A stretch of 64,000 bases of DNA from IMG/VR virus record IMGVR_UViG_3300029552_000001; one strand, 5' to 3'. A program made the translations under genes and the position numbers. The notes beneath the pieces were generated by a model. The model searched no databases. It was given only the letters and a program-made list of their open reading frames with translations, and was not told where the DNA came from. Shown here one piece after another: positions 12,807 to 52,113 of the stretch (its first letter is position 1; each line of letters starts with the position of its first letter). The DNA comes from a virus.

Positions 12807-12938
12807 GCAAAAGGCTAGTCGCTCCTGCTCCGGCCTACCTTGAAACTCCACTGCCGCCCTATACCATGCCGGGGATAATACCCTGACCTTCTCCGGTACG
12901 GGCGGTGTCATGAGCACCGATCGCCGCCTTCCTTTGGC
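12807..12938. repeat. GC-rich hairpin element (family member, ~132 bp)
   Basis: Base pairing of GCAAAAGGC (12807-12815) with CCTTTGGC (12931-12938). The interior is visibly GC-rich with nested stems (GGCGG..CCGCC). The minus-sense 5' edge reads GCCAAAGGAAGGCGGCG. Confidence 0.45.
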
Positions 12939-12945
12939 ATCCTCC

Positions 12946-13431
12946 CTACCTCTCATCTGGATTATCTTTTAACAGTTCAGCTATCTTCTCATCCTTCAAC
13001 ATATTTTGCTTTCTCATGCTATCTACAACAAAGGCAGCGAACGCCATATCATACCTTTTCCTTAACTCATTGACAAAAGATTTGGCTTTTGATTCTACCA
13101 TTGTCTCGATGTTGCTGTCTACAACTTTCTTCATCCTGCCTCTTATAAACTCGTCTACTGTCAACTCCTCATCCATATAATCTAACCTGAACCTATATTT
13201 CTTCTCGCTGGCGTTCTCGACAAGATCGTTCATTGATTCTCTCGCTATATCCTCAATCTTCTCTGATATCGGATTGGATATTTCTCTCATCAACTCATTC
13301 TTGAACTTTTCTTTAAGTTCATGTATTATAGCTAACCTGACCGAGCTGGTAAACCCCTCTTTCAACGTCGCTTCATTGTACATAGCTTCCTCGAATACAT
13401 CTTCCAAATTTAATTCTACTTGAATTTTCAT
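12946..13431 (-). CDS. hypothetical protein (161 aa)
   Basis: ORF track. Confidence 0.6.
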   Translation of the reverse strand: MKIQVELNLEDVFEEAMYNEATLKEGFTSSVRLAIIHELKEKFKNELMREISNPISEKIEDIARESMNDLVENASEKKYRFRLDYMDEELTVDEFIRGRMKKVVDSNIETMVESKAKSFVNELRKRYDMAFAAFVVDSMRKQNMLKDEKIAELLKDNPDER

Positions 13432-13483
13432 ATCATTATATTTTAATAAATTATAAATTTTTTAGGCATATAATTATCATGTA

Positions 13484-13852
13484 TTATTTCCCCTCATCTT
13501 TTAATATTAATTTCTTCCCGATCTTTTTAATTTTTGTCGGTCTTGATAATCGATAGTCTCTTTCTATCGGTCTATTAAGTACATCATCCTTGTGCCCCTT
13601 GTATCCTTTCTCGTAAGCACTAACCCTTGCGCAAAACTCAACCACATCGCCTGGCGATAAATCAGCACCACTAAATCCTTTTGTTAAATCGAACCACAAA
13701 TGATCTGATACTATTTTGCTATCAAGTGTCACATCTTGTAAAAGCATCGTTTTTACAGGTCCAATGTATCCATTCCTAAATCCCAATCTAACAAAGGTTG
13801 CTGTAAACACATGGCGTCCTTTTGATCCTATTGTTCTCAACTCTTCTCTCAT
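13484..13852 (-). CDS. hypothetical protein (122 aa)
   Basis: ORF track. Adjacent to the ABC-type ATPase. Confidence 0.55.
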   Translation of the reverse strand: MREELRTIGSKGRHVFTATFVRLGFRNGYIGPVKTMLLQDVTLDSKIVSDHLWFDLTKGFSGADLSPGDVVEFCARVSAYEKGYKGHKDDVLNRPIERDYRLSRPTKIKKIGKKLILKDEGK

Positions 13853-13860
13853 CTCCTTTC

Positions 13861-14658
13861 TTATTTTTTATTCATAAAACCAGTAATTTTCTTCAAATAC
13901 CCTTTTGTCATCTCAATAAAGTTCACGCAATCCAGCTTGCTCAACTTGTAAATCAAAGCCGGGTTATGAATTACGGCTATAATTTGTGTTTGCGGTTTAT
14001 GAAATGACAATACTTTGTACAGATCCATGATATTGTCAATATCTAAATTCCTGTCCGGCTCATCCATAATGATTGTATACTCAAAATCCTTCTCCATTAA
14101 TACCACATGATTGTCTTTGTAGTATTTTAAAAGATTGTCGATCCTGTTTGCCCAGAACTCATTTGACTTTTTCTTAAATTCCATAAGTTTCTGTATCGGA
14201 AACGCATACTCATCTTGGTTAAACACAAAATCAAAAAGCGAGTTCATGGCATGAAGGTTCTTCTCCCCAGAGGACCTAGATGCTCCATTCATATACAAAC
14301 TTAAATTATTGATATTATCCAATATATCATCCTTTCTCATTTCAGTTTGCTGTAGGAGATGGAATACCTTCCCGATATAATCCGACTTAATACTGATCCC
14401 GTCAAGCACCTTGTCATCATCAAATATATCCGGGAAATACAATGCTTCTGACGGTAATTCAGAACACATCTTTTTCTCGCACAACATGTACTTCGATATC
14501 ATATTCAGGAGGGTTGATTTCCCGCTCCCGTTCTTGCCTACAATCACATTCACGCCGGGCTTGAATATAAACTCAGAGCCATTTTTGAACGCTTTTATCT
14601 TTTGGATATATTTAAATGGAGTCTTCTTGTTGTCGTCTATCCTTATAGAAGTTATCAT
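13861..14658 (-). CDS. compact ABC/SMC-type ATPase (265 aa)
   Basis: Walker A GKNGSGKST, signature-like RSSGEK, Walker B IIMDEPDRNLD and H-loop VIHNP. Confidence 0.75.
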   Translation of the reverse strand: MITSIRIDDNKKTPFKYIQKIKAFKNGSEFIFKPGVNVIVGKNGSGKSTLLNMISKYMLCEKKMCSELPSEALYFPDIFDDDKVLDGISIKSDYIGKVFHLLQQTEMRKDDILDNINNLSLYMNGASRSSGEKNLHAMNSLFDFVFNQDEYAFPIQKLMEFKKKSNEFWANRIDNLLKYYKDNHVVLMEKDFEYTIIMDEPDRNLDIDNIMDLYKVLSFHKPQTQIIAVIHNPALIYKLSKLDCVNFIEMTKGYLKKITGFMNKK

Positions 14659-14679: not shown

Positions 14680-14919
14680 TTATTTAAGCCTTTCATTAAT
14701 TGCCAAATCAAATATCTTATCAAGACATTTCCTCATCTCCGCCGCCCCGATGATCGCCTTTCGATTCCCGAACGAGAGCCACGAAGTAATGAACCCACTG
14801 ACCTCCGCGTCCCGCCCGGAATACCGCCTTGGGAACTGGACGGGATCGCTGGCAATAAAGTCGGCGGTTTCGTATTTGTCCGCCATGCATTTCGGCATGT
14901 CTACAAATTTGTCATTCAT
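14680..14919 (-). CDS. short ORF resembling the N-terminus of TIGR02757/DUF2400-family proteins (possible captured gene fragment)
   Basis: DPVQFPRRYSGRDAEVSGFITSWLSFGNRKAII resembles the family N-terminus, from memory. It is only 79 aa and locally GC-richer than its flanks. Confidence 0.35.
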   Translation of the reverse strand: MNDKFVDMPKCMADKYETADFIASDPVQFPRRYSGRDAEVSGFITSWLSFGNRKAIIGAAEMRKCLDKIFDLAINERLK

Positions 14920-14922
14920 TGT

Positions 14923-15696
14923 TTATCCCTTCATTTGTTCGCATGCCAATCTTTCAAGTTCCGGTGTAACGTTGGTATTCATTATGCCTTTCAAGCAAGG
15001 GCATTGTCGCCAGACTATATCATAAATCTTTGACAATTCAATCAAAGCCTCATTGTTTGATTCAACTGTCATAATCCAATTGTCCGGCGATATCTCTATC
15101 TCCCTGCATGGTATTTCTTTCTTGCCTTTTGGCATATATCCGTTCTGATAGTCTTTTACATTACATCTACCAAAATATCTTCCAGTGAGTATTCCGTTTT
15201 CGTCCGTCTCAAACAACCCTCCTATCCATCCTATCTTATGGATGTTCTCCGTCCACGTTCGAGTGGCGAATAAAAACTTTTTTACAGGAACTTTTGAAAA
15301 TGCATCAACATCATGGATACTCCCGTCCGGCTCTTTGAATATCGATGATTTTCTTTTATTCTGGCAACTCCCGTCTAAGCCTATTTTTTCCCATTCGCCA
15401 TCGTCAAATCTCAAAGGAGAGATTATATCAAAACTGCAAAGTTTCTTGACGAGATTGATTTCAAATGGTGCCGAGAATCCGCTGTTACCATGAGAAGAGA
15501 ACAGCGCGACAGCTTCTATTACCTGTTCGCGCATCCATTTGTTAGGACCGTCCTCTTCTTTGCTATATCCGGCTAATTCCAATTCTCTTATCGCATGTTT
15601 ACATAAATTACTGTTTGCGATAATATACCGAAGAGCCTTCTTGTTGATAAGGCTCTTCTTGCTCATTTTCTTTACAATTCTTCTACTCTTTTTCAT
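14923..15696 (-). CDS. hypothetical protein (257 aa)
   Basis: ORF track. Confidence 0.6.
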   Translation of the reverse strand: MKKSRRIVKKMSKKSLINKKALRYIIANSNLCKHAIRELELAGYSKEEDGPNKWMREQVIEAVALFSSHGNSGFSAPFEINLVKKLCSFDIISPLRFDDGEWEKIGLDGSCQNKRKSSIFKEPDGSIHDVDAFSKVPVKKFLFATRTWTENIHKIGWIGGLFETDENGILTGRYFGRCNVKDYQNGYMPKGKKEIPCREIEISPDNWIMTVESNNEALIELSKIYDIVWRQCPCLKGIMNTNVTPELERLACEQMKG

Positions 15697-15904: not shown

Positions 15905-16321
15905 TTATATTCCAACATCCTTCCCATCCTCTTTAACCCAATTAACTGTATCGCAATACCAACAATACCCTGTCTTGGAATCCTTTTTATGAGAATGGGA
16001 TCCACATGTGGCGCACCAATAATTATCATCCATATTGTATGTATAACTTTCATCCTCATGCATTTTGGCTATTCTAGCTACCCTATCCTCCAGCAGATCC
16101 TTTAGATAATGGCATTCGTAAGGTCTATCCTCTTCCTTTAATATATAAATATCGATATCCATCATGCTCCCCATCCTGTCCGTACACATACACTCGGCGG
16201 CATGGCGCACGTTCCCTTCCGGCATCCCCGGAACTATCTCCCGGATCACCGCCTCCATCTTCTCTTGGTATTCGGTGTCTACCTTGACCACCAAATCCTC
16301 TAATTTATCTATTAAACTCAT
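15905..16321 (-). CDS. hypothetical protein with C-terminal zinc-ribbon-like CxxC pairs
   Basis: CATCG..CWYC. Confidence 0.55.
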   Translation of the reverse strand: MSLIDKLEDLVVKVDTEYQEKMEAVIREIVPGMPEGNVRHAAECMCTDRMGSMMDIDIYILKEEDRPYECHYLKDLLEDRVARIAKMHEDESYTYNMDDNYWCATCGSHSHKKDSKTGYCWYCDTVNWVKEDGKDVGI

Positions 16322-20278: not shown

Positions 20279-20457
20279 ATTACTTTAACTTCCTCGTTCC
20301 ACAAATGTCTTTCATATACCATGGTTGTTCCTATTAGGATTCCGGTATCTTCTCCCCAATATTCAAGTATTTGACTCCTGAATTTGTGACGCAATTTTTG
20401 TATTCCTCCCTTGTTTTTATCATAAGAAGAGTAATCCGATAATCTTACTGTCTCCAT
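20275..20457 (-). CDS. hypothetical protein (60 aa)
   Basis: ORF track. AGGAGG (20469-20464, minus) lies 6 nt upstream of the ATG. Confidence 0.5.
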   Translation of the reverse strand: METVRLSDYSSYDKNKGGIQKLRHKFRSQILEYWGEDTGILIGTTMVYERHLWNEEVKVI

Positions 20458-20521
20458 CGTTTACCTCCTTCATTTGTTCGTATGCCAATCTTTCAAGTTC
20501 CGGCATGGTGTTTGTTTCTTC

Positions 20522-21624: not shown

Positions 21625-22611
21625 CTATAAAAGATCCTCATTGCCCCCATAAGGGATACAATAAGTCCAAACCGTCCCATGTACACATTCATATCCATGA
21701 GAATTTACACCCGTTATTTCTCTAGCAAATAAACTAATATTCCATGCATCATCTTGGCTATTTCTTACCAATACTTTGTCAAATGGTTTTAACTTATACT
21801 CTGGCTCTATCTCAATACCAAAGAATTGTTTCAAACACATTTTGGCTTTAGGTTCTTCACTTGCCTTAAGATCGTTAATAAAATCTCGCTTTTCGTCCTC
21901 AGTGGCATATCTATATCTCTCAATATTATTTTGATTGGCAGCTCCATTGTCGAAATATAAATAACCCCCTTCTTGCCAAGAGGCATGATAAGACGTAAGG
22001 TATTCCCCGTTTGTATTCAATATGAATAAATAATCACCTTCTTCATTGCTCAATACATCCCCATCCTTAAATGCCGTATATTCCGGAATATTAATACAAA
22101 GCCTACATCCTCTTGCTCCTAGTCCATTATCAGAGAACCAGTCTGATGTTATACCATAATCAGAATAAATCACTCCTAGTGTATTAAACATCCCCCTATC
22201 TTTATTATAATACACTAACTCTACCTTATGATTATGTCCGACCGTTACAATCTCACCATCATATTCACCATTGCTAATTTTCTTTGCCAGTTCTAAGTCA
22301 AATGGTTTTGTTATCATTCTCTTTTCCATAATTTTACATGTATTTATATTGTTATTTTTCACTTTAGCTATATTATCATCTTGTAGCAATCTTGCTTTAA
22401 GGTCATCTATAGTCCTTAAATCCATATTATATGTGCATAGATGAGCGCTCCCGTAACCGGTTAAATTGTTTATTACAGCCACATGATATCCGCCACCTAT
22501 CTTATACACTTCCTTGACCTCCCATATATCCCTGCTATCATATTCATATCTATTGTTCCAGTCTATAAAATCTTGCTTTATAGATACCATATCTCCTTTT
22601 TTAATATTCAT
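21625..22611 (-). CDS. hypothetical protein (328 aa)
   Basis: ORF track. Confidence 0.6.
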   Translation of the reverse strand: MNIKKGDMVSIKQDFIDWNNRYEYDSRDIWEVKEVYKIGGGYHVAVINNLTGYGSAHLCTYNMDLRTIDDLKARLLQDDNIAKVKNNNINTCKIMEKRMITKPFDLELAKKISNGEYDGEIVTVGHNHKVELVYYNKDRGMFNTLGVIYSDYGITSDWFSDNGLGARGCRLCINIPEYTAFKDGDVLSNEEGDYLFILNTNGEYLTSYHASWQEGGYLYFDNGAANQNNIERYRYATEDEKRDFINDLKASEEPKAKMCLKQFFGIEIEPEYKLKPFDKVLVRNSQDDAWNISLFAREITGVNSHGYECVHGTVWTYCIPYGGNEDLL

Positions 22612-22652: not shown

Positions 22653-22744
22653 TCCAACGAACATGGGCGGACGCCTCGCTTCCCTCCGCACGTCTTACCT
22701 ATACACGCCGGCTCCACCGGCAACGCCATCCATGACATTTTGGA
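22653..22744. repeat. GC-rich hairpin element (weaker family member, ~92 bp)
   Basis: Arms are TCCAACGAACATGG (22653-22666) and CCATGACATTTTGGA (22730-22744). The interior has GCCGG..CCGGC and GCGGA..TCCGC stems. Confidence 0.35.
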
Positions 22745-22775: not shown

Positions 22776-23042
22776 TTATTCCGGGTCATGATTCTTTTTT
22801 TTAAAATTTATATCAAATTCCCGTATATTAAGTATCTCCTTGAAAACCATCTCTCTAATGAAACAACCCATTTTATGTATTTCATCTTCATTAGATATTC
22901 CCCACACTTCAACTGCTGCATGAATCGCATCTTTCATAGAGAAACAGATCTGAGTCCAATCACTATATTCTCTTTCATCGTTTAAAATATCTTGTATCTT
23001 TCTTTCGCAATGTTCTATATATTCTTTATTGAAATTACTCAT
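22776..23042 (-). CDS. hypothetical protein (88 aa)
   Basis: ORF track. A G9 tract lies 43 nt upstream. Confidence 0.55.
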   Translation of the reverse strand: MSNFNKEYIEHCERKIQDILNDEREYSDWTQICFSMKDAIHAAVEVWGISNEDEIHKMGCFIREMVFKEILNIREFDINFKKKNHDPE

Positions 23043-27655: not shown

Positions 27656-28045
27656 TTATAATATTACATTAAACAACTCGTTTAACCTATCTATCTCACT
27701 TAGGTATTCATCTTCTTTATCAAATCTAATTTGCGTCCCTCCCTCCAATCCAAAGGACAGGGTAAAGGATATGACCCAGCCCGATCCGTCCACGGCCTTC
27801 CCCTTGGGAACCCAAGACATCACCGTCTTCTTGGATATCCACCATCTCCCTATCTCAACGAAATCAGGATAGTTGTTCATTAAATACACCATCTGACTAG
27901 CCATCTTATTGACATCATCAAAAGACACTATATGATACTTGTTTCTTATCCTGACCTTCAAGAAGGGGTTATCCATATTATATGCCGCAAATGCTGATAT
28001 TACGGAACTGGAATATCTAACCCCTTTTATTATTACCCATTTCAT
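27656..28045 (-). CDS. hypothetical protein (129 aa from ATG 28045; track start 28054 is GTG)
   Basis: AAGGAGG (28060-28054) lies 8 nt upstream of ATG 28045. Confidence 0.55.
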   Translation of the reverse strand: MKWVIIKGVRYSSSVISAFAAYNMDNPFLKVRIRNKYHIVSFDDVNKMASQMVYLMNNYPDFVEIGRWWISKKTVMSWVPKGKAVDGSGWVISFTLSFGLEGGTQIRFDKEDEYLSEIDRLNELFNVIL

Positions 28046-28347: not shown

Positions 28348-28773
28348 TCATTTCCTCAATTTGTTTTTAACCTCCTTAACATATTTGGGAGAATGTAATC
28401 CCCTATGCAATCTTATAGCCCGATCTATATCCTTGTTCGGATTATGATGAGATTGATATATCTCGAACATTTCCCTAGCCTTGATAGGATTTGTTCTATC
28501 ATCGTATCTATACCGCTTTTTCTCCCGTTTAAGACACAATATCCTATTAACCTCATCTACATACACCTTTTTCATCTGCCACCTCCCTAACGCCCCTGAA
28601 GTGGCGTTGTACGCCCGATCGTCATCCCTTGACTCCACGAAAGATAGGGCGGCCGCCAGCTTATCCCATACCCGTGCCTCGACCACTGCCGGCTTCGGGG
28701 CGAGGGGCATGCCTCCGTTCCCTTTTGGTGGTGTCAATATTATCATCGTCATCACAAGTAAGTATCTTATCAC
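28348..28773 (-). CDS. lytic transglycosylase (SLT-domain) with N-terminal hydrophobic anchor
   Basis: FVESRDDDRAYNATSGALGRWQM matches the SLT catalytic E-S..A..S..GA.G..Q motif. The N-terminus MIRYLLVMTMIIL is hydrophobic. Confidence 0.7.
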   Translation of the reverse strand: MIRYLLVMTMIILTPPKGNGGMPLAPKPAVVEARVWDKLAAALSFVESRDDDRAYNATSGALGRWQMKKVYVDEVNRILCLKREKKRYRYDDRTNPIKAREMFEIYQSHHNPNKDIDRAIRLHRGLHSPKYVKEVKNKLRK

Positions 28774-32378: not shown

Positions 32379-32393
32379 AAACACTTATTTTTG

Positions 32394-32462: not shown

Positions 32463-32467
32463 TGGTA

Positions 32468-32854
32468 TTAACTTCCTCCAATAATCTCATAATCGAATTT
32501 CACATTAATACTCTCATCAATGTTTAATTCTTTCTTCATCCCAAATACAGTCTCCCTTACCGTATCAAAACCCAATAATTGATCTTCGGGATTATTCACA
32601 AGCTCTCTCCGGTTATTCTTCCTAGGTTTTCTAGATGTAAGAATATATTCCGCACAACAGCTTCCTTCAAATGTCCTCACTCTGGAATACCATAGATCAC
32701 CGGTCCCGTACTCAACACATATATTCATGTTTATGATGGTATTATCCCACGCTTTTTCCGGTAAATGTTTGAAAATTCTGTTAACCCACCCCGTGTCAAT
32801 ATCTATATAAGGACAATCTAAATCCGATGTCCCCTTAATATCCAGATATAGCAT
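32468..32854 (-). CDS. hypothetical protein (128 aa)
   Basis: ORF track. Confidence 0.55.
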   Translation of the reverse strand: MLYLDIKGTSDLDCPYIDIDTGWVNRIFKHLPEKAWDNTIINMNICVEYGTGDLWYSRVRTFEGSCCAEYILTSRKPRKNNRRELVNNPEDQLLGFDTVRETVFGMKKELNIDESINVKFDYEIIGGS

Positions 32855-32916
32855 AACCTATCTATTATTCTTAAACATTCGAGCTTTCACATTCATTTTC
32901 TTCCGTCCCCATACCA

Positions 32917-33246
32917 CTATTCTATTATTTCCAACTTCCCGTAATAAGGATAAAAACAACCGTCTCGATAAACCGAATATCTGAGCGTTTTATCCTTTGC
33001 TTCATAGATGGAAACACAACCGCTGTTATAAGCGTTGGATAGTTCTTTTGCTACAAATCCACCTATTTGTTTATAGGTTTTAGGCGTATCCGCCAACGGC
33101 CTGCCTACATATATTTTTACCCTCTTGCACTTTTTGTCGCCTACGCATATATCCTTTCCTCTAAGCTCCGTTAAATACATGAATCTCATATCAGTCAATT
33201 TTAAATCCAACATTCCTCTACCTCTATCTCCATACGATCCTCCCAA
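32917..33246 (-). CDS. hypothetical protein (109 aa; start uncertain)
   Basis: ORF track. Confidence 0.5.
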   Translation of the reverse strand: MGGSYGDRGRGMLDLKLTDMRFMYLTELRGKDICVGDKKCKRVKIYVGRPLADTPKTYKQIGGFVAKELSNAYNSGCVSIYEAKDKTLRYSVYRDGCFYPYYGKLEIIE

Positions 33247-33443
33247 TTACATAAATCAGGATTCTCTCCTTCATAAAAGTAATAGTAAGCCCATACTTCA
33301 ATATCGCCCACTTTTATGCATCCATCACTGCACCATTCCACAATATCGTCATTCCTGCATACATTTGTCGGTTCAGCACCAAGCGACAATAGTTTGTTTA
33401 TTATATTGTCACCGAACCTTTCTTTCGCTTCCTCTTTCGTCAT
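33201..33443 (-). CDS. hypothetical protein (80 aa from ATG 33443; track start 33521 lies inside the GC-rich hairpin)
   Basis: MTKEEAKERFGDNI.. starts just past element 33475-33544. The 26-codon upstream extension is element sequence. Confidence 0.5.
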   Translation of the reverse strand: MTKEEAKERFGDNIINKLLSLGAEPTNVCRNDDIVEWCSDGCIKVGDIEVWAYYYFYEGENPDLCNWEDRMEIEVEECWI

Positions 33444-33474
33444 ATCGCTATCAGATTTTAATATTACACTAACG

Positions 33475-33544
33475 CCAAAGGGAAACAGGGACGGACGACC
33501 AGCGGACCTACCCCACGCCATCGCCGCCCCCCGTTCTCCCTTGG
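33475..33544 (-). repeat. GC-rich hairpin element (family member, 70 bp)
   Basis: Minus sense CCAAGGGAGAAC (33544-33533) pairs with GUUUCCCUUUGG (33486-33475), 11 of 12 including G.U. The same pairs are A-C mismatches in plus sense. Confidence 0.55.
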
Positions 33545-33706
33545 CTTCCTACACTCCCTCCATCACCCAAAGAAACACACACACCCATACATAAACATAC
33601 CTTCATACACATAAGATTCCCTTACTATAAAGATACCCTTGTTCCCCTTCCCTATTGTTTCCCGGGATCCCTTATTTCATCTCGTTTTTCCTCGGTTCAC
33701 ATTGAT

Positions 33707-33746
33707 CCCCTTGACTCCCCTTGACTCCTCTTGATTTCCCTTGTTT
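33707..33746. repeat. four tandem 10-bp repeats (CCCCTTGACT CCCCTTGACT CCTCTTGATT TCCCTTGTTT)
   Basis: Read directly from the sequence with exact 10-bp phasing. It sits in a 330-bp non-coding, strand-asymmetric tract (33545-33845) with at least 9 CCCTT motifs on the plus strand. Confidence 0.85.
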
Positions 33747-33845
33747 GGAGGTGTCCCCTCCCGCAAAACAAACCAACCCCACCAACTCCCAGCATAAAAC
33801 CCGAGACCTTCCTCCCGATTGTTCCACGTGGAACGCCCGTTCAGT

Positions 33846-34109
33846 CTAGGATATCGAGGTCTTTGCTCTTGATTGCCTTATATTTATGCAATGTATTGAT
33901 AATAAAGCCAATAAAAGAACTATGATTAAAGGCAGGGCGTCGCCCGTAGCTATAACATACCGCCCTAACTCAAACGCCATATACCCACAAAACAAAGTAA
34001 GCACGAAATATATAACTAATCCCATAAAATATACAATAAGTAACCACGATTTTAAAATTACGCCCAAATAATATAATAAATTGAGTATCAATAATATAAT
34101 ATATATCAA
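33846..34109 (-). CDS. small integral membrane protein (about 3 TM segments)
   Basis: IYIILLILNLLYYLGVIL, LLIVYFMGLVIYFVLTLFCGYMAF and LPLIIVLLLALLSI are hydrophobic stretches. Confidence 0.55.
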   Translation of the reverse strand: MIYIILLILNLLYYLGVILKSWLLIVYFMGLVIYFVLTLFCGYMAFELGRYVIATGDALPLIIVLLLALLSIHCINIRQSRAKTSIS

Positions 34110-34392
34110 CCCCTAGAGCTCCCTCTAAGGAAAGATAAGCCCAGATATAGATAAAAAATATACAATAAGTACCGCCTATTATATACCTTTTAGGATCGAT
34201 TCACGCACGAAACCATACATAAGGGCACAATATACCCGCCTGCATGGATATAAATATATACAGAATGATACATAATAAAGCATTTTACTTACACATTTTA
34301 GATCAGGGCTTAAAATTTACCACCTTAACACTTTTATGTGTAAGCAAAACATATGAATATGCTATCATTCTGTAAAATATAGGCACAAAAAA

Positions 34393-34428
34393 GCCCTTCC
34401 GTCTTATATCACTACAATACGGAAGGGC
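34393..34428 (-). terminator. rho-independent terminator
   Basis: 10-bp stem GCCCTTCCGT/ACGGAAGGGC with a 16-nt loop. On the minus strand it is followed by a T6 run (plus A6 34387-34392). It lies 31 nt past the stop of gene 34459..34677. Confidence 0.65.
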
Positions 34429-34458
34429 AAAACTTTAAAATCAAATAAAAACAAACGA

Positions 34459-34677
34459 CTACTGTCTCAATTTGTTTGCCATGTAACTAACACGCTTACG
34501 CCTGCACTTATCCGACTCCCTGCTACAATCTAATTTATTAGAATTGTATAGTTCTTTGGTAAGCTCAATATAAAACTCCATTTGAGACTTTCTAGCAGAT
34601 TCTAAAGCCTTTTCTTTTTGAATAGATAGTTTCCTATTCAAGTTACTAAATTTATTCTTGTACATAATCAATCGCAT
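34459..34677 (-). CDS. hypothetical basic protein (72 aa; may start at MYKNK, 34665)
   Basis: ORF track. Confidence 0.5.
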   Translation of the reverse strand: MRLIMYKNKFSNLNRKLSIQKEKALESARKSQMEFYIELTKELYNSNKLDCSRESDKCRRKRVSYMANKLRQ

Positions 34678-34686
34678 TTAATGAAG

Positions 34687-34775
34687 CCAATAAGAAACAG
34701 GCGACTAACAAGGCACAAGGCCGCCGTTATCAATACAGCTAGCCGGACGCACCACACCCGCCAGATTCCCTTTGG
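34687..34775 (-). repeat. GC-rich hairpin element (family member, ~89 bp)
   Basis: Minus sense CCAAAGGGAAUC (34775-34764) pairs with GUUUCUUAUUGG (34698-34687), about 10 of 12 with G.U. The interior is GC-rich. Confidence 0.4.
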
Positions 34776-34881
34776 TTTTTGTCCCTTTGCCCCGAACGAA
34801 CGAGACCAAATACGCACATACGTCACCCCGTGATACGTACCGACAAGGCGCACTTTGTCCGTCAATTTAACCGCACAAAAT

Positions 34882-34895
34882 ACCCTTGCAAGGGT
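34882..34895. promoter_or_regulatory. perfect 14-bp palindrome ACCCTTG.CAAGGGT (candidate dimeric protein operator)
   Basis: Read directly from the sequence. It is built from the same CCCTTG/CAAGGG core as the tandem array and the hairpin-element bases. Confidence 0.4.
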
Positions 34896-35299
34896 TGTTA
34901 TTTGCTATCCGTACACATGTTAGGTATTTAAGCTACCCTAACATACGTCGTATTGATATATTGGCACGGAAATAACGCCGTAATACACTCAATACGTGCT
35001 GCTCTCACAACGCACTAACATACGCCCTATACATGCGTATATACACCAATATACCCCGTGCTTTTACACGGCCTACTAGGTTAACCTAGCGTACTTACCG
35101 GATTGATATAAACCTAAAGATAATAGTACTACCCTGGACTAGGATAGTACCTAAACCACATTACTAAGCGGCGGCCTATCTACTGCAAGTTCTCGACACC
35201 CTAACAACCAGCAATATGTTTATATCAAAATATCAAATATCGTACCTATTTAGTCTAAATCAGTAGCGCGACGGGAACGCATAGGTGTGCTACCATAAC

Positions 35300-35325
35300 G
35301 CCCCCTATGTGATTAAATAGGGGGC
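35300..35325 (-). terminator. GC-rich 9-bp stem hairpin after gene 35334..35864
   Basis: GCCCCCTAT pairs with ATAGGGGGC around an 8-nt loop, 9 nt past the stop. There is no U-tract. Confidence 0.45.
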
Positions 35326-35333
35326 AAATCGTT

Positions 35334-35864
35334 TTATCTATCATTCCTAGGGTGCGTCAAATAGTAAGTGACACATTTTGCAATAAGATTAAACGTATAT
35401 CGTTTGATAGGTACAGCGCACTTTATGATACGTTTGTCTGCTCCGTTAAACGTTTCGTAATATATACCAAAATCAAACTCTATAGGCTCATTGTATCCAA
35501 AGCGTTTATGAGAAGAACCTAGTATTGCTATATCCTCTATTTCGTTCATTTTAAGCTTTTTGTTTTTATCCTGATCATTTTTATCATAGTATTCACGTTC
35601 TACTTCTTTGTATGCGCAAAATGTGTTATTTACACGTGGTAGTATTTCTTTACAAAGCTGTATTACTACTTCTTTGTCCTTTGCCAAATTGACTAAAGCG
35701 GGGACAATCGATTTGTCTACTTTGATCTCATTTTCCTTTAAAATCTCATTAACTTCTTTGCTGGATTTAAACAGCTGGCACCATGCTTTGATGGCACCTG
35801 TTAATGTCTTTTCGCTCGATTTTTTAATCTCATTCTGTACTTTATTAATCTCTTTACTTATCAT
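35334..35864 (-). CDS. hypothetical protein (176 aa)
   Basis: ORF track. Confidence 0.6.
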   Translation of the reverse strand: MISKEINKVQNEIKKSSEKTLTGAIKAWCQLFKSSKEVNEILKENEIKVDKSIVPALVNLAKDKEVVIQLCKEILPRVNNTFCAYKEVEREYYDKNDQDKNKKLKMNEIEDIAILGSSHKRFGYNEPIEFDFGIYYETFNGADKRIIKCAVPIKRYTFNLIAKCVTYYLTHPRNDR

Positions 35865-35940
35865 ATACTTTGCCTATACCTTTAGGACTTATAATGGCAC
35901 CTGGTACGCCTTGTTTGTTAATGCTGTTATCTTACAGGAG

Positions 35941-35948
35941 CAAATATA
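35941..35948 (-). promoter_or_regulatory. Bacteroidota-type -7 box (TATATTTG on minus strand)
   Basis: Plus strand reads CAAATATA, 76 nt upstream of ATG 35864. Confidence 0.3.
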
Positions 35949-36323
35949 CTACATGTTTTATTGTCCAACAAATATTTTGCAATAAAAATTCGACGATTAT
36001 ATGTAATAAATCTAATCAAATGTAAACATATATTAAAATATTGATTTATATGATTGACAATCAACAAGTTAAACACAAAATAATCATTCTTTTTTCGGCT
36101 CGCAGATCGTTTACCGTTCTTGTTTCCCGTCCTTTGTGGATTGGGGGGGCTGGTCCAAAAACGGCAGCCCGGCCGGGCCGATTTCGGGGAGGTGGTCCGT
36201 CCCGCATATCCCCCTCCCATCATACCCCACCTCATCCTTCCAATAACGTCCCGCATATCATCCTCTCCGAATATCCCTCATACTTCCTCACAACCATATC
36301 ACCTTCCATCTCATTTAATTTGT

Positions 36324-36331
36324 TATATTTG
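36324..36331 (+). promoter_or_regulatory. Bacteroidota-type -7 box (TATATTTG)
   Basis: Upstream of gene 36424..37179. The G11 tract starts 52 nt downstream of the box. Confidence 0.4.
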
Positions 36332-36382
36332 CGATATAATTAAAACATAATATATTATGAATAAAGAAGTTAAATACATGAT

Positions 36383-36393
36383 GGGGGGGGGGG
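36383..36393 (+). repeat. homopolymer G11 tract in the 5' leader of gene 36424..37179
   Basis: Read directly from the sequence. It is followed by TATTTATATCCTCC. Confidence 0.95.
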
Positions 36394-36423
36394 TATTTAT
36401 ATCCTCCGTAAAAATTTATTCTT

Positions 36424-37179
36424 ATGATAAGGAGGAGATTTTATTCAAGTTATAAATCCCCTGTTGATAATGGCGTTTATGCCGTTAAACAGGATGGTAG
36501 ATTAATACCTTTGTCAAAGGCGGATTATCAATGTATATCCGTAGCTATTGTACATGATGATCATAAGATCATGATTGAGAAGAATGAAGATTCTAATCAA
36601 AGCTACAAAACAGCCACGTCCGGTTTGCCCGATTCTTCTAACAAGACTTACTCTTTTTATTGGGGTGAATATGGTACGGATCAGACCGGCATTACAAATT
36701 ATGACAAAGTAGACGGGAGCAATGATTTTGGTTTCCTAAAACCGGAGTCGGGTTCATACAATGGTACTCCTAACCTTTCGGCAAATGTTACTGCCTGGAC
36801 AAGCGGGGCTTTATCTGATTGGGATGGGAAAGCGAATTCCAATGTATTAAAAGGGGTGACTACCGGTGGCGGTTCTTATACTTCCTATGCGACAATTGGT
36901 CATGTACTTAATACGTTCTTAGCTAGTGCTGACGCTAAAGGATATGATGATTGGTATATCCCATCATGTGGTCAGCTTTCATTGATATATATGTACTTGA
37001 TTAGCGTCAATAACGCGTTATTGGCTATTGGTGGACAGCCGTTAGATACCAGATATTATTGGTCTAGTTCAGAGCATAGCTCCAACTCCGGATGGATCGT
37101 ACTATTCAACAATGGGCGCACATTCACCCGATACAAGCGCCTAACCTCTTCTGTTCGATTTGTACGTGACATCGAGTGA
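36424..37179 (+). CDS. DUF1566 (Lcl C-terminal / lectin-fold-like) domain protein
   Basis: C-terminal DDWYIPSCGQLSLIY..YYWSSSEHSSNSGWIVLFNNG..SSVRFVRDI matches the W-x-L/I-P-S..EL, YWSS and VR.VR pattern of DUF1566, from memory. Confidence 0.6.
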   Translation: MIRRRFYSSYKSPVDNGVYAVKQDGRLIPLSKADYQCISVAIVHDDHKIMIEKNEDSNQSYKTATSGLPDSSNKTYSFYWGEYGTDQTGITNYDKVDGSNDFGFLKPESGSYNGTPNLSANVTAWTSGALSDWDGKANSNVLKGVTTGGGSYTSYATIGHVLNTFLASADAKGYDDWYIPSCGQLSLIYMYLISVNNALLAIGGQPLDTRYYWSSSEHSSNSGWIVLFNNGRTFTRYKRLTSSVRFVRDIE

Positions 37180-37196
37180 TCATACACCCTACTGAC

Positions 37197-37267
37197 CCAA
37201 TAGAACGGGGCTGGCTCCCATCCCTTATAGCCTTCCCGGCGGGTATGACGCCAGCCCCCTTCCTTGG
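37197..37267 (-). repeat. GC-rich hairpin element (family member, 71 bp)
   Basis: Perfect 9-bp GGGGCTGGC (37207-37215) pairs with GCCAGCCCC (37250-37258). The helix is extended by the CCAA..GGAA/UUCU..UUGG base (G.U only in minus sense). The loop is 34 nt. Confidence 0.55.
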
Positions 37268-37298
37268 TATCTTCCCTCCCCCATCTAATATAATTTAT

Positions 37299-37306
37299 TA
37301 TATTTG
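37299..37306 (+). promoter_or_regulatory. Bacteroidota-type -7 box (TATATTTG)
   Basis: Upstream of gene 37396..37947. The G9 tract starts 53 nt downstream of the box. Confidence 0.4.
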
Positions 37307-37358
37307 TACGTAACTTAAATTATTTAATCATGTATCAATATATTACAGATAACTTCGT

Positions 37359-37367
37359 GGGGGGGGG
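37359..37367 (+). repeat. homopolymer G9 tract in the 5' leader of gene 37396..37947
   Basis: Read directly from the sequence. It is followed by TATTTTAACCCTC. Confidence 0.95.
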
Positions 37368-37395
37368 TATTTTAACCCTCAGATAAGGAGGGGGT

Positions 37396-37947
37396 ATGTT
37401 TAGGCGCAGGACTTCTTCTACCGGTAAGATCCACTACCGTGTTAATATAAACAAGAATATGTGTCTTGGCGTTGTATATATATATATTGATGGGAAGCCA
37501 TATCAACCTGGTTTTAACGGATCTTATCTTGATATATATCGCGATAAGAAGATAAAAACTATAAGCATAAGTGGCAAGATATCATATCTAAATCCGAAAA
37601 ATGAGTACAATGTTATTTTGGGCATAAGTGGAGGTATTATAGAGGGAGCCCTTACGTATCAATATAATTCGGGTATGCATTGCGAGTTGGCTAATAAGGT
37701 GATATACGGGAATAGGATAACTAATTTTGTTCCTGTAACGGTGATAAAAGATCCTGGGAAGATCATTAATTTCACTTACAGATCTGAATTACAGACTCAG
37801 GTTTTAGATGAAAGTTATGTAAGTTGGGATGGTGATTATGTATTAAACGATAATTGTATAGTAACTGATCTTTGTTCGGGATGTGAATCTTATGCCTATG
37901 GGAAAAGTTCTCGTGGTAACTATCGAGTAACGGTAAGGATAGTGTAA
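37396..37947 (+). CDS. hypothetical protein (183 aa) sharing the MxRRR..SS N-terminus with 36424..37179
   Basis: MFRRRTSSTGK compares with MIRRRFYSSYK. AAGGAGGGGG lies immediately upstream. Confidence 0.6.
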   Translation: MFRRRTSSTGKIHYRVNINKNMCLGVVYIYIDGKPYQPGFNGSYLDIYRDKKIKTISISGKISYLNPKNEYNVILGISGGIIEGALTYQYNSGMHCELANKVIYGNRITNFVPVTVIKDPGKIINFTYRSELQTQVLDESYVSWDGDYVLNDNCIVTDLCSGCESYAYGKSSRGNYRVTVRIV

Positions 37948-37949
37948 TC

Positions 37950-38019
37950 CCAAGGGAAGGAGGGAGACCTCGTCCTTCCGGGCCTCCCCCGTCCTACCAC
38001 CGCCTCCCGTTCTTTTTGG
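37950..38019. repeat. GC-rich hairpin element (family member, 70 bp)
   Basis: CCAAGGGAAGG (37950-37960) and CGTTCTTTTTGG (38008-38019) form the base. Inner stems are GGAAGGA/TCCTTCC. It starts 3 nt after the stop of gene 37396..37947. For this copy the base pairs better in plus sense. Confidence 0.45.
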
Positions 38020-38083
38020 CTTCTCCATGTATTGTCTTTGACCGGATATCAAAAATTCATATCTTTGGAACAAAACTACAATC

Positions 38084-38338
38084 ATGTTTAGAGACACACT
38101 ACATAAAATCAAGATCTTCTTCTGCGATGACGATATCGAGAAGATATATGTAAGGGATAGTACGGTTATCCGCAACAACGAGATACATAAGATGTATGAC
38201 GAGATACTTAACGAGCTAGGTGATTTGGCTACGGTCGTATCAAGGAACTACGTATATGGTAAGATAAAGGACAGGACGGGGTTAAGTATCCGTCATATCA
38301 GTAGGATAATAAACCATACTAAAGTTGAGGAGATATGA
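38084..38338 (+). CDS. hypothetical protein (84 aa)
   Basis: ORF track. Confidence 0.5.
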   Translation: MFRDTLHKIKIFFCDDDIEKIYVRDSTVIRNNEIHKMYDEILNELGDLATVVSRNYVYGKIKDRTGLSIRHISRIINHTKVEEI

Positions 38339-38613
38339 TTAAGGATACGATGGAGCGGGATATGATAAATGAGATATCCACGTTGTTCGTAATGATATTC
38401 ACGTCAGGGTTGATGTTTGTCATGCCGATATTAGATGTAGGGTATAATGATATCATTGTCATAATAGGATTCGGGATAATACTATCTTTTATGTTAACCA
38501 TAATCCCGATCTTGCTTTCTTACGATATAAGGGATGAAATCATTGAGTTGATTGAGGATCTGGATAACCAGATCGTGGTAGACACTTCGGTATATAAAAC
38601 GAACCTGCCCTAA
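38335..38613 (+). CDS. small membrane protein (2-3 TM segments)
   Basis: ISTLFVMIFTSGLMFVMPIL and IIVIIGFGIILSFMLTIIPILL are hydrophobic stretches. Confidence 0.55.
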   Translation: MIKDTMERDMINEISTLFVMIFTSGLMFVMPILDVGYNDIIVIIGFGIILSFMLTIIPILLSYDIRDEIIELIEDLDNQIVVDTSVYKTNLP

Positions 38614-38629
38614 GTAATTCCTAGGGCAG
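38605..38629. terminator. bidirectional terminator-like hairpin between convergent genes
   Basis: CTGCCCTA pairs with TAGGGCAG (8 bp) around a 9-nt loop. It overlaps the stop of 38335..38613 and lies 11 nt from the stop of 38640..38945. Confidence 0.5.
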
Positions 38630-38639
38630 ATGTATAAAA

Positions 38640-38945
38640 CTAGATATTCCTTTTAATATATTTATCCATAAGGTCTATGGATAATTTAGTTCCCAGCTCC
38701 TCCTCCAACAGGTTAAGGTAGTTCTGGTGCAGGCATCCACCCCGCTCCACCTCCCTAAAGCCGGCCCCGTCCCGGATCCTGACCAGCCCTTTCCTTGGAT
38801 CCGTATCGATCAGATCCCGAAGCTCGTTCATGTTCTTAAACCGGCTCTCTATTACCTTAAATACATCGATCTTAGGTTTCTTATCCTTATCTTTGGACTT
38901 TATCTTAACTCTTCCGCTCATATCGATTATCCAGTAACCTTGCAT
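38640..38945 (-). CDS. hypothetical protein (101 aa)
   Basis: ORF track. Confidence 0.55.
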   Translation of the reverse strand: MQGYWIIDMSGRVKIKSKDKDKKPKIDVFKVIESRFKNMNELRDLIDTDPRKGLVRIRDGAGFREVERGGCLHQNYLNLLEEELGTKLSIDLMDKYIKRNI

Positions 38946-40815: not shown

Positions 40816-40835
40816 ATGTTTAAGAAAACACCATG

Positions 40836-40907
40836 TACCCCAATCCGGAATCGAACCGAAATTTCATCGTTAGGACCGACGTGTTCTATCCATTGAACTA
40901 TTAGGGC
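40836..40907 (-). tRNA. tRNA-Arg (anticodon CCU), 72 nt, no encoded CCA
   Basis: Hand-folded cloverleaf: GCCCUAA-UA-GUUC(AAUGGAUA)GAAC-A-CGUCG(GUCCUAA)CGAUG-AAAU-UUCGG(UUCGAUU)CCGGA-UUGGGGU-A. The D-loop has GG and the T-loop is UUCGAUU. G32 is unusual. Confidence 0.7.
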
Positions 40908-50231: not shown

Positions 50232-50251
50232 ATCTTTTTATGTTTATGGTA

Positions 50252-50259
50252 CAAAGATA
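50252..50259 (-). promoter_or_regulatory. Bacteroidota-type -7 box (TATCTTTG on minus strand)
   Basis: Plus strand reads CAAAGATA, 21 nt upstream of the helicase start. Confidence 0.35.
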
Positions 50260-50334
50260 CGAATAGTTATAATTAACTATTAAAAATAAATGTGAATAAT
50301 ATATAAATATTAAATTTTATATCTGATACTCAAA

Positions 50335-51423
50335 TCATCCAGCTTTACTCATCTCGGACCCTTTTACCCCTAAAAAGACGTCTTTTATAAAATCTTCGGC
50401 GATGATTATATGCATTATCTTTCCTCTGTATGATAGTCTTAGGTGTCCGATAGTTACGTTCTTCCTATCTTTGGTATTAACTATTCCGTTGTTTTTCTTT
50501 ACCTCATCATATAAATCGGATATAGTCTTACAGCACATACTAAGAACTTCTTTTATCATCCGATATACCGTTCTTTGGGATATTAGCATCATACCTTCTT
50601 TTGATAACTTTATATTCAATCTATCCATAAGATATGACACATTGAATTTGACAGTTCTTTTTTTAGTTACCTTATATATCTTATTTATATTTCTGTTTCT
50701 AGCTGAGAATATTATTTTTGATAACATCTTGACTCTATTTAATTTACGACTTTTGTTAGCCATCCATCTTCTGGTATTCGAATCAAGATTTTTATCAAGG
50801 CAGGTATATACAGATTCTCCTTTCTTTACAAACATATCCTTTATCCTTGGGGTCTTACTAGCCCTATGCTTGTATTTTATGATATCCGATAAAGCTATCA
50901 TAATCTCTCCTTCAGCCCAAGCCTTTAAGCTTATAAGCTGGTAGTTCATATCCTCATGAGAATCCCTTAACACATGACGGTAGCAGAAATAAGCACATCC
51001 ATCTGATAGGATATCAATAAAATCATTGGTATTGATCTCTATCTGATCTCTATTCCCGCCATGCATCCTATTTCTTAGAAACACATGTTTGAATACGTTT
51101 ATGATAATAAGATATATCATTGCCATCTTACATTCATCACTGATCTGAATACCTGATCCATGATACTCCTCATGTTTCAATGAATATTTTATAGCTGTCA
51201 CTTTTTTGCCTTCCTTATTGGTAACAGGTTTAAAATCGACTGGACATATAAGTGACCCGGCTGGAAGTTTTACGCATCCTAGCTCATCTTTTTTGGCCTG
51301 AATATTACGTGGAGTATATCTTTCGGTAAGAATCTTATCGAAATTTGATTTCATTATATGTAAAATTCCTATCTTTGTTCCCATAGTAGATTTTATTTTC
51401 TGCGAATATACAAGTTTCATCAA
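50335..51423 (-). CDS. hypothetical protein (362 aa), first gene of the minus-strand block
   Basis: ORF track. Confidence 0.6.
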   Translation of the reverse strand: MMKLVYSQKIKSTMGTKIGILHIMKSNFDKILTERYTPRNIQAKKDELGCVKLPAGSLICPVDFKPVTNKEGKKVTAIKYSLKHEEYHGSGIQISDECKMAMIYLIIINVFKHVFLRNRMHGGNRDQIEINTNDFIDILSDGCAYFCYRHVLRDSHEDMNYQLISLKAWAEGEIMIALSDIIKYKHRASKTPRIKDMFVKKGESVYTCLDKNLDSNTRRWMANKSRKLNRVKMLSKIIFSARNRNINKIYKVTKKRTVKFNVSYLMDRLNIKLSKEGMMLISQRTVYRMIKEVLSMCCKTISDLYDEVKKNNGIVNTKDRKNVTIGHLRLSYRGKIMHIIIAEDFIKDVFLGVKGSEMSKAG

Positions 51424-51952
51424 TACGAAACAAGTTATTCAGATGGATGGGTAGCCTGTGAAGGTCACCCATTTGTTGTTTATACGAAATTATCGTAATA
51501 AATTAGAGAGGGTAAATCACTGTGTTTGTGAAAGATCATTTTTGACACAACACTTGTTACGCGTGCGTTAATAGGTATATTTATTAAATATAATTAACTC
51601 TATAAACATATACTACTTTCTAATATCTCTATCCGTACACAGAACCTCTCCTGACGTCGAGTTCCTGTGTACTCCACTTAAAGTCTCTATTTAATAAAAC
51701 ATTGCTTTTTACCGCCAAGATATGGCGCCGTCATGCAGGATACCGCAGGCTAAACCTGATAGAAGCCGTATCCTATACCGGAAGCCGGTACCCCGGTAGA
51801 GAGATCGGGTGGAGCATAAGCCAAAGAAGAAAAAGCGAGGTCTTGTACGATCGCTCGCGCTCCGGCCGTCCGTATCTTCTACGGCAGGCTCCATCGCCCA
51901 AGGCTTCCCATTTCCCCTTGGCTTTATATCCCATATCATGGCATGAAGGAAT

Positions 51953-52113
51953 CCAAAGGGAAAAGGTGTGGTCATGTCCCGTGAGGCAGGATAGGGCTGT
52001 CCACCGCCGCTCGGAGGCATGTATGGTCTGTGCTCCACTGGCCTCGTTGCCGTGGCTTACGGTGGACTTATCTGGCTTTCCTCCGCCACTTCCACCGCCT
52101 TTTCCCATTTGGA
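51953..52113. repeat. large GC-rich inverted-repeat element (~161 bp) with CCAAAGGGAAAAGG arms
   Basis: CCAAAGGGAAAAGGTG (51953-51968) compares with the reverse complement of 52094-52113 (CCAAATGGGAAAAGGCGGTG). A mini-hairpin CCAAGG/CCTTGG lies at 51898-51921. Confidence 0.45.

Follow-up and report, generated by a model that had tools for sequence, protein, structure and literature searches.

Genomic setting of the hairpin repeats

The DNA analyzed here, a window of 64,000 nucleotides from IMG/VR record IMGVR_UViG_3300029552_000001, derives from an uncultured phage of ~150 kb, and contains a dispersed family of GC-rich hairpin repeats located between the genes of its early region. Nearly all genes from 1 to 51.4 kb are on the minus strand, and this block encodes DnaB-like and Dda-like helicases, exonucleases, a sliding clamp, and RecA, together with a large block of ORFans; plus-strand genes (terminase, portal) follow from 52.2 kb. 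Every copy of the element falls in the ORFan-rich block at 12-52 kb, and the covariance model described below has no match in the late region at 52-64 kb. Human-gut viromes carry this phage group very commonly: four protein anchors recruited 214-341 IMG/VR stretches each, mostly at 92-100% amino acid identity and on contigs mainly of 80-160 kb. The portal protein shares 48.5% identity with its counterpart in the gut phage csAssE-Sib (151 kb) and ~30% with those of Cellulophaga phages; a literature search on the name csAssE returned nothing relevant. The start codons in the window have no Shine-Dalgarno sequences, and the Bacteroidota promoter pattern TTTG-N17-23-TAnnTTTG occurs more often than expected (7 matches vs 1.7), features which together point to a host that is very probably a member of the Bacteroidota; a scan of the window for sigma70 promoters gave matches at the rate expected by chance (36 vs 36.1).

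On the evidence of sequence and predicted folding, the repeats form a real, previously uncatalogued, lineage-specific family of RNA hairpins, for which a plausible mechanism can be proposed. The elements have a GC content of 55-69%, against 39% for the window, and their minus-strand sequence opens with CCAA(R)GG and closes with YYTTGG. Five small intergenic elements of 69-89 nt (el1 to el5) carry an A/G-rich 5′ arm, CCAARGGRAA..GGCGG (48% A, 42% G), and a U/C-rich 3′ arm, ..UUYCCYUUGG (53% U, 36% C). The 5′ arm is well conserved among paralogues, with the consensus CCAAGGGRAACGGGCGGCGG, and is complemented by the C/U-rich 3′ arm; the elements thus end in conserved terminal inverted repeats of 10-18 nt. 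The overall layout is an A-tract, a GC stem, and a U-rich tract, the last being the 3′ arm itself.

A sequence-only reading of this DNA had described dispersed GC-rich hairpins at gene boundaries, closed by CCAA...TTGG and with the G-rich strand always on the minus strand. Such imperfect inverted repeats are present at 32394, 33475, 34687, 37197, 37950, and 51953, they are positioned at gene boundaries, and their G-rich strand is the minus strand in all copies, including two inside a plus-strand gene island. Five small and at least two large members constitute the family, but some of the copies listed in that reading are weak and one is due to chance. Chance was controlled on the real sequence by listing, for both strands, all stable GC-rich hairpins that are closed by a 4-mer and its complement (512 classes); CCAA on the minus strand was the top class, with 6 loci, and 434 classes were empty. 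A covariance model built from 40 orthologues of the 33475-33544 copy only was then run over the whole window without filters, and its top non-self matches were 32399-32462 (E 1.7e-7), 37950-38019 (E 1.6e-6), and 37197-37267 (E 0.1), all on the minus strand; from these matches the copies are, as judged by sequence, homologous and not convergent. The strict motif pair CCAARRG...CYYTTGG was too narrow (3 pairs only), GC islands alone were not specific (42 islands, mostly coding), and a sequence-only MAFFT alignment of the paralogues yielded no usable consensus structure.

Several look-alikes were rejected. The stretch at 28711-28731, previously counted as bearing the motif, is coding sequence inside an ORF (open reading frame) without a partner arm, and is thus attributed to chance. 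The segment at 10699-10766 (covariance model E 0.024) codes for a 23-aa product conserved in homologues down to 45% identity, and 27750-27807, 5522-5619, 2277-2367, and 38704-38797 are ordinary coding sequence. The segment at 5522-5619, in ORF 5460-6602, is GC-rich, is conserved in relatives, and encodes a C-terminal extension of the DnaB-like helicase (residues ~328-360, past the helicase domain match); it can form a very stable hairpin in the plus sense, at -47.9 kcal/mol, and a weaker one in the minus sense. In-frame insertion into genes, in the manner of Rickettsia palindromic elements (RPE) or byp elements, was likewise rejected: every candidate inside an ORF is ordinary conserved coding sequence.

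Small elements, large modules, and weak members

Four of the small elements are nearly equal in size, as had been reported. The first, el1 (32394-32462, minus strand, 69 nt), lies between two minus-strand cistrons, with a stop codon 5 nt upstream and the next ATG ~15 nt downstream; its orthologue in the relative L018 differs chiefly by C/U changes in the 3′ arm. The best-conserved copy, el2 (33475-33544, minus strand, 70 nt), precedes the ATG of the next minus-strand gene by 31 nt and is represented by 85 distinct orthologous variants. The longer el5 (34687-34775, minus strand, 89 nt) has an extended upper stem, with the ATG of gene 34459-34677 at 9 nt downstream; 48 variants were found in 71 loci, and 94 loci span it intact. 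The two copies in the plus-strand island are el3 (37197-37267, minus strand, 71 nt), 17 nt past the stop of plus-strand ORF 36424-37179, and el4 (37950-38019, minus strand, 70 nt), 2 nt past the stop of plus-strand ORF 37396-37947. A Bacteroidota-type promoter match at 38037-38067 (plus strand) is located just downstream of el4 and upstream of the plus-strand gene at 38084. A repeated promoter-like cassette also occurs ahead of cassette genes in either orientation (36303-36406 and 37284-37395, both plus strand; and 3330-3400, minus strand, in locus L002). In it are TATATTTG, which is the Bacteroidota -7 motif, a stretch rich in AT, and, immediately ahead of the start codon, 9-11 consecutive G and then TATTT. 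In locus L155, a full small element at 16086-16198 is followed at once by a partial second copy (model positions 14-57), a tandem partial duplication.

The copy reported at 51953-52113 is real, but belongs to a sub-family of larger, stem-closed modules (159-171 nt) that is tandem in relatives. This module, Big-A (51953-52112, minus strand, 160 nt), occupies the divergent intergenic region upstream of recA, where the minus-strand gene block begins, and its closing arms, UCCAAAUGGGAAAAGG...CCUUUUCCCUUUGGA, are the same as those of the small elements. Forty-eight distinct variants were found in 80 related loci (mean identity 0.78), in which the ~18-bp closing helix is conserved and the internal TATCCTGCCTCACGG is invariant; an invariant UAUCCUGCCUCACGG hairpin is a feature of the tandem modules. 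The Big-A invariant 15-mer is restricted to this phage group, the three checked matches on other contigs being coding coincidences. Across these loci Big-A measures 159-162 nt, Big-B 168-171 nt, and Big-C 101 nt; the modules are arranged in tandem upstream of recA, ~31 nt apart, and ~25 of the 80 relatives carry an extra Big-B after Big-A. Big-C (51821-51921, minus strand, 101 nt) lies 31 nt downstream of Big-A and has the ends CCAAGGGGAAAUGGG...CUUUUUCUUCUUUGG, a conserved closing stem, and a minimum free energy of -34.4, with 43 distinct variants among 75 instances; the motif GCCGGAGCG.GAGCGA is common to Big-C and Big-B. What had been taken for a separate mini copy at 51898-51921 does belong to the family, but as the 5′ end of Big-C. 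Beyond the closing helices and the one invariant hairpin, no consistent internal fold was found in the large modules. Between Big-C and the recA start, ~400 nt (51424-51820, minus strand) are non-coding, GC-rich at 51700-51820 and then very AT-rich at 51540-51700; cumulative GC skew turns here, and the region could be an origin or a long leader.

Two further reported copies have the closing arms, but fold like shuffled sequence and are related only loosely to the family. The 132-nt candidate at 12807-12938 (minus strand), 7 nt past the stop of ORF 12946-13431, has the 5′ arm GCCAAAGGAAGGCGGCG, a degenerate 3′ arm, and a fold z of -0.21; its internal GCCGGAGCAGGAGCGA motif resembles Big-B and Big-C, it has only the closing arms and the internal GCCGGAGC.GGAGCGA in common with the large sub-family, and relatives are variable immediately downstream. 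The 92-nt candidate at 22653-22744 (minus strand), in the non-coding junction between ORFs 22776-23042 and 21625-22611, has a UCCAA...UUGGA closure (CCAA/TTGG) and little else of the family, with a fold z of -0.43 and length variants of 88, 90, and 95 nt; locus L031 keeps it at 85% identity with both flanks deleted or replaced. The only other repeat within the window found by self-BLAST is a 49-bp direct pair at 92% identity (14917-14964 and 20455-20503), situated at two gene boundaries.

Predicted structure and its conservation

The earlier claim that G.U pairs favor the minus-sense RNA was confirmed by folding. The minus-sense and plus-sense RNAs reached, respectively, -34.1 (z -3.43) and -11.6 kcal/mol (z +0.2) for el1, -41.1 (z -4.0) and -26.2 kcal/mol for el2, and -33.3 (z -2.57) and -18.1 kcal/mol (z -1.2) for el5. 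Plus-sense strands were 12-22 kcal/mol weaker and mostly like shuffles (z from ~0 to -2.5), except for el3, a near-perfect hairpin that folds in both senses (-41.4 kcal/mol, z -4.5 in the minus sense; -33.8, z -3.9 in the plus sense). The remaining copy, el4, is a recombinant of two elements, as described below, and for this reason its fold is indistinguishable from shuffles (z -0.43). The minus-sense minimum free energy structures of 32394, 33475, and 34687 contain 25-30 pairs. In 178 distinct small-element sequences from relatives, copies in minus-strand operons averaged -31 to -43 kcal/mol in the sense orientation, and the in-sense fold was better than the antisense fold by 10-19 kcal/mol. 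An arm alignment neutral with respect to pairing gave 6.7-9.7 G.T against 0.1-2.0 A.C appositions per copy on the G-rich strand in the three main clusters.

With DNA parameters there was no strand preference: the two strands gave -7.8 vs -6.5 kcal/mol for el1, -15.1 vs -14.1 for el2, and -9.4 vs -5.8 for el5. The corresponding minus-strand z-scores showed no signal for el1 (+0.44) and el5 (-0.38), and el2 was borderline on both strands (-1.9, -2.6). As modeled, the hairpin is thus a property of the minus-sense RNA, which argues against cruciform or single-stranded DNA (ssDNA) models, including attC-like ones.

Pairing was also followed across relatives. In 40 distinct orthologues of the el2 type, 95.7% of stem cells were standard pairs, a value reached by 0 of 500 shuffles and compared with 55-76% when the 3′ partner was slid; nearly all variation was of the form GC<->GU<->AU, many stem pairs were G.U in a third to half of cells, and four pairs had changes on both sides. 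Four diverged copies of the el5 type keep a 28-pair hairpin, with three compensatory pairs. Pairing was therefore kept, but changes on both sides of a pair were not more frequent than in shuffles, and since the sequences are closely related, this conservation is supportive of an RNA structure rather than conclusive.

Distribution and novelty

The only Rfam 15 matches at gathering thresholds are HEARO and a tRNA, neither of them at an element, and E-value mode over 32300-38100 and 51400-52300 added only two sub-threshold matches to miRNA models. The full-length HEARO/omega-RNA match (54544-54765, plus strand; 92 bits, above the Rfam gathering threshold) has on its 3′ side ORF 54822-55607 (plus strand, 261 aa) with RRXRR (E 1e-61) and HNH domains; together they resemble a short RNA-guided nuclease module of the IscB type, inserted directly ahead of the terminase genes, with a protein far shorter than typical IscB. 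The tRNA-Arg(CCU) gene (40835-40907, minus strand) lies inside the early block, with mosaic breakpoints on either side, at 40820 and 41080.

When one genome per species from 185,579 bacterial and archaeal species was searched with the 5′ arm, only 18 random high-GC matches and one phage-like contig were obtained, so that the genomes searched contain no family member save one probable contaminant, and a host-derived repeat was rejected. The contig in question (L212, NZ_JBHMEP010000020.1, in the assembly of Vibrio olivae CECT 8064) is 16 kb long with 38% GC, carries an exact copy of a small-element variant in phage-type flanks, and probably represents contamination of that assembly by this gut phage. 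A palindromic-arm scan of IMG/VR gave 34 loci, of which the 4 real ones all belong to this phage group, and no copy was found in the 100 kb examined of the syntenic relative csAssE-Sib, including its whole early region. From the absence in Rfam, bacterial genomes, and csAssE-Sib, the family is, on sequence grounds, a lineage-specific expansion. The earlier statement that these are not a described element holds against Rfam 15, but close precedents exist in the promoter-early stem-loops (PeSLs) of T4-type phages, REP and Correia repeats, and the RNase III sites of phage T7, considered below.

Genomic context and transcription signals

Flanking genes were compared over 142 distinct flank contexts in relatives. 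In 87 of these (61%) a same-sense ORF has its first ATG 16-40 nt past the element; a same-sense stop occurs within 15 nt upstream in 19, and the stop of an opposite-sense ORF within 15 nt downstream in 14; the typical arrangement is a stop codon, 2-12 nt, the element, an AT-rich spacer of 18-32 nt, and an ATG. There is no room for a promoter between the element and the next ATG, and none of the 7 Bacteroidota-type promoter matches is in an element or in the gap between element and ATG. The element is thus not at the end of a transcription unit in 61% of contexts, where an ATG follows with no promoter between. A consensus terminator scan of the window flagged shorter canonical terminators, e.g., at 38603-38631 and 35300-35325, and called no element.

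Recombination at the elements

The relatives are highly mosaic, and the median number of breakpoints is 56 at gene boundaries with an element, compared with 12 at boundaries without (one-sided Mann-Whitney p 0.001). Breakpoints pile up at element edges, with 82 within 20 nt of the 3′ edge of el1, 66 at the 5′ edge of el2, and 32 at the 5′ edge of 22653-22744; another 52 are in the center of el4. In L002, two elements (3402-3472 and 2428-2497) flank a 957-bp cassette of promoter and gene at the position where the window has el4 alone, and el4 consists of the 5′ half of the first of these joined to the 3′ half of the second. L155 and six other loci are without window segment 37220-37970 and have instead a hybrid of the el4 5′ half and the el3 3′ half, joined inside a shared AAGGA(U)G stretch. 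The 5′ half CCAAAAAGAACGGGAGGCGG was found with five different 3′ halves. A table of half re-assortment overstates recombination where indels split clusters, and reliance was placed on the combinations of the CCAAAAAGAACGGG 5′ half and on the two aligned indels. Hybrids fold poorly and the copies in plus-strand islands are generally weak, as expected if recombination, not RNA function, shaped them.

Four roles were offered in the sequence-only reading, one of them that of protein-binding sites. Two are supported: that of recombination boundaries, since the elements are preferred mosaic breakpoints with crossovers inside them, and that of an RNA module, in that the modeled structure is specific to RNA and to one sense and its pairing is kept across orthologues. 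That of a mobile miniature inverted-repeat transposable element (MITE) is not supported, on the evidence given below. In ~400 loci, no difference consists of the element alone; the polymorphisms are indels of cassettes or units with junctions in or at elements.

The mosaic early region also contains, within 1-19 kb, an ORF matching Pfam Tad3, a type I Thoeris inhibitor (E 3e-34; the ORF was not pinpointed), and other ORFs matching DUF4494, DUF6371, and an SbcC-like SMC_N/AAA_23 ATPase, all of which is consistent with anti-defense cargo.

Comparison with known systems

The closest precedent is the PeSL of T4-type phages. PeSLs are small dispersed motifs conserved between genes, each a composite of a sigma70 promoter and a short, G/C-rich stem-loop in which some pairs are G-T. 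They cluster in the hyperplastic early region, where ORFans abound, and most often immediately precede an ORFan; recombination between copies leads to indels and replacements between close relatives (Arbiol et al. 2010, PMC2839356; Comeau et al. 2014, PMC4122927). The enrichment of the present elements in a hyperplastic region, the enrichment of breakpoints (p 0.001), and the hybrid elements at two cassette indels all follow this pattern. In contrast to PeSLs, these repeats have no promoter part and lie 16-40 nt from an ATG, their stems are much longer (20-30 bp in elements of 69-171 nt), G.U-rich, and closed by conserved A/G and U/C arms, large tandem modules are present, and the phage is an unrelated one of Bacteroidota rather than of a Proteobacteria host.

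Phage T7 has ~10 homologous intergenic RNase III hairpins of 50-60 nt, in the sense of transcription and shortly upstream of starts, at which cleavage separates cistrons and leaves a stabilizing 3′ hairpin. The present elements are likewise intercistronic and predicted to fold into sense-strand double-stranded RNA of at least 20 bp (25-30 pairs in 32394, 33475, and 34687), but there is no sequence similarity, and no conserved counterpart was found here of the internal loop at the single T7 cut. Among bacterial repeats, some REP/BIME, ERIC, and Correia (NEMIS) elements stabilize upstream mRNA or are cut by RNase III or RNase E. These too are imperfect palindromes of 35-160 nt in the intergenic parts of operons, forming families with conserved ends that fold in mRNA, but REP is a 20-40 bp palindrome with a GTAG/CGTC head and a REP-associated tyrosine transposase (RAYT), as compared with 69-171 nt and a CCAA(R)GG start here, and the TA target duplication and long perfect terminal inverted repeats of Correia were not seen. 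Unlike these bacterial repeats, the present family has one orientation, is in a phage rather than a bacterial chromosome, and has no match in bacterial genomes.

The attC sites of integrons are also imperfect inverted repeats of variable length with conserved ends, a variable center, and one orientation, at the boundaries of small accessory cassettes, and here the reverse-oriented cassettes carry their own promoters. However, attC folds and recombines as ssDNA, whereas the minus-strand z-scores with DNA parameters were +0.44, -1.9, and -0.38; the attC core is RYYYAAC/GTTRRRY, compared with CCAARGGRA/UYCCYUUGG; and here no integrase was found in the window and crossovers are not fixed. Finally, the GC clusters of yeast mitochondria and the RPEs are GC-rich palindromes in AT-rich genomes that form diverged families and are recombination hot spots, but they occur in both orientations, and RPE and byp elements reside inside coding sequence, where none was found here.

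Interpretation and alternatives

The best explanation, to which we give roughly even confidence, is that early polycistronic transcripts carry the elements as cis-acting RNA stem-loops, which act in processing and stability or as attenuators and double as homology for cassette shuffling. The stem-loops would punctuate the long minus-sense polycistronic transcripts of the early and accessory block, where a duplex of ~25-30 bp may serve as substrate for a double-strand-specific host RNase III, by analogy with the T7 intergenic sites. The hairpin may also, or instead, act as a partial terminator or attenuator, which the layout of A-tract, stem, and U-tract would permit. Neighboring cistrons would be cut apart or insulated, leaving a protective stem at the 3′ end of the upstream message and a short, defined leader on the downstream one. 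As a secondary effect, which the data do show, the copies serve as portable homology, being homologous and uniformly oriented: homologous recombination between them deletes, inserts, or swaps cassettes between related phages and leaves hybrid elements behind, in a phage that encodes RecA. Descent most simply explains the constant orientation, as directly oriented copies that undergo homologous recombination keep their direction regardless of the contents of the cassette, and the copies in the plus-strand island, being hybrids or symmetric hairpins, are probably relics or weak bidirectional terminators.

Several observations weigh against this explanation. Two of the five small copies (37197, 37950) are antisense to their neighboring genes, so that a role in minus-sense RNA is inapplicable to el3 and el4 unless the island is also transcribed in the minus sense, and a role at the level of RNA alone would not predict copies that keep one orientation whichever way the genes point. 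Pairs changed on both sides were not above shuffles (231 of 500), independent double changes are few, and the covariation rests on closely related sequences. The half re-assortment table is partly an effect of cluster-splitting indels, no RNase or RNA-binding partner was found by Pfam among the 109 ORFs of the window, and, because it is absent from the syntenic csAssE-Sib, the family is dispensable for this phage type.

An unlikely alternative is that the elements are intrinsic, partly bidirectional terminators or attenuators between cassettes, with read-through provided by phage antitermination. A U-rich 3′ arm (53% U; e.g., UGUUUUCCUUU, UUUUUUCUUUUU) after a GC stem, preceded by an A-rich 5′ arm, is the layout of a bidirectional terminator, copies come directly after stops of genes on both strands, at distances of 2 and 17 nt for those in the plus-strand island and of 2-12 nt for those in operons, and the PeSL stem-loops of T4-type phages are effective terminators (PMC2839356). 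Most copies, however, precede a same-sense ATG by 16-40 nt with no promoter room, so that efficient termination would silence the downstream genes; the stems are 2-3 times longer than is typical, the U tracts contain C interruptions and pair with the 5′ arm, and the consensus scan flagged other hairpins and no element. We regard as decidedly unlikely that these are selfish miniature mobile elements (MITE-, REP-, or Correia-like), with the arms as terminal inverted repeats for a transposase encoded elsewhere and any RNA effects incidental. Diverged paralogues with conserved termini and variable interiors would fit such elements, as would the same ends on the 69-89 and 101-171 nt versions, a lineage-specific expansion absent from csAssE-Sib, the intergenic location, and a number of tandem large copies that varies between genomes. 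Yet no target-site duplication was found, as neither the window copies nor 28 distinct contexts have direct repeats flanking the element, and none of ~400 loci is missing just the element between otherwise collinear flanks; no pair of filled and empty sites was seen among ~160 loci compared with the window or among 80 at the recA-proximal array. Nor were transposase, RAYT (Y1), or IntI tyrosine or serine recombinase domains found among the 109 ORFs of the window (64 kb of the ~150-kb genome), and the annotation of csAssE-Sib, over the two 50-kb parts examined, lists no transposase or recombinase; the 185,579 prokaryotic species searched have no copy of the 5′ arm other than that on the contaminant contig, all copies have one orientation, and a G.U pattern specific to one strand and to RNA, and its maintenance, would be unexpected for the end of a DNA transposon.

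Sites acting at the DNA level, as ssDNA or cruciform hairpins for an attC-like recombinase, the replication machinery (priming or origin), or a structure-specific nuclease, are very unlikely. They would account for an orientation that is constant irrespective of gene orientation, for a conserved base and variable center over sizes of 57-170 nt at the boundaries of cassettes, some of them reverse-oriented with their own promoter, for breakpoints at element edges, and for tandem large copies in the divergent intergenic region by the replication genes, where GC skew switches. Against them, el1 and el5 fold like shuffles with DNA parameters and el2 is borderline on both strands, with no strand preference; G.U pairs, in a third to half of the cells of many stem pairs, would be mismatches in DNA; the arms differ from the attC core; crossovers fall mid-element in shared microhomology and not at a fixed site; and no tyrosine or serine recombinase was found in the window or in the csAssE-Sib parts examined. 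As a long shot, a putative dedicated phage protein may recognize the CCAARGGRAA/UUYCCYUUGG closing helix, especially that of the tandem 100-171 nt modules upstream of recA, and either excise decoy or regulatory small RNAs from the early transcripts or exchange cassettes of promoter and gene between co-infecting phages, the latter amounting to a phage-borne, RNA-marked analogue of an integron.

Significance for the phage group

The early region that carries the repeats is 40 kb long, ORFan-rich, and highly mosaic. If the elements are sites of RNA processing or attenuation, as we favor, they would offer a first handle on the organization of expression in a large Bacteroidota phage without Shine-Dalgarno sequences and with few recognizable promoters. 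If they are preferred crossover points, they would explain how accessory genes, probably for anti-defense, are shuffled between co-circulating strains, and would carry the PeSL concept beyond T4-type coliphages into an unrelated lineage of gut phages. Since cassette boundaries can be located with the conserved arms and the covariance model, both could serve to catalogue the accessory gene pool of the group.

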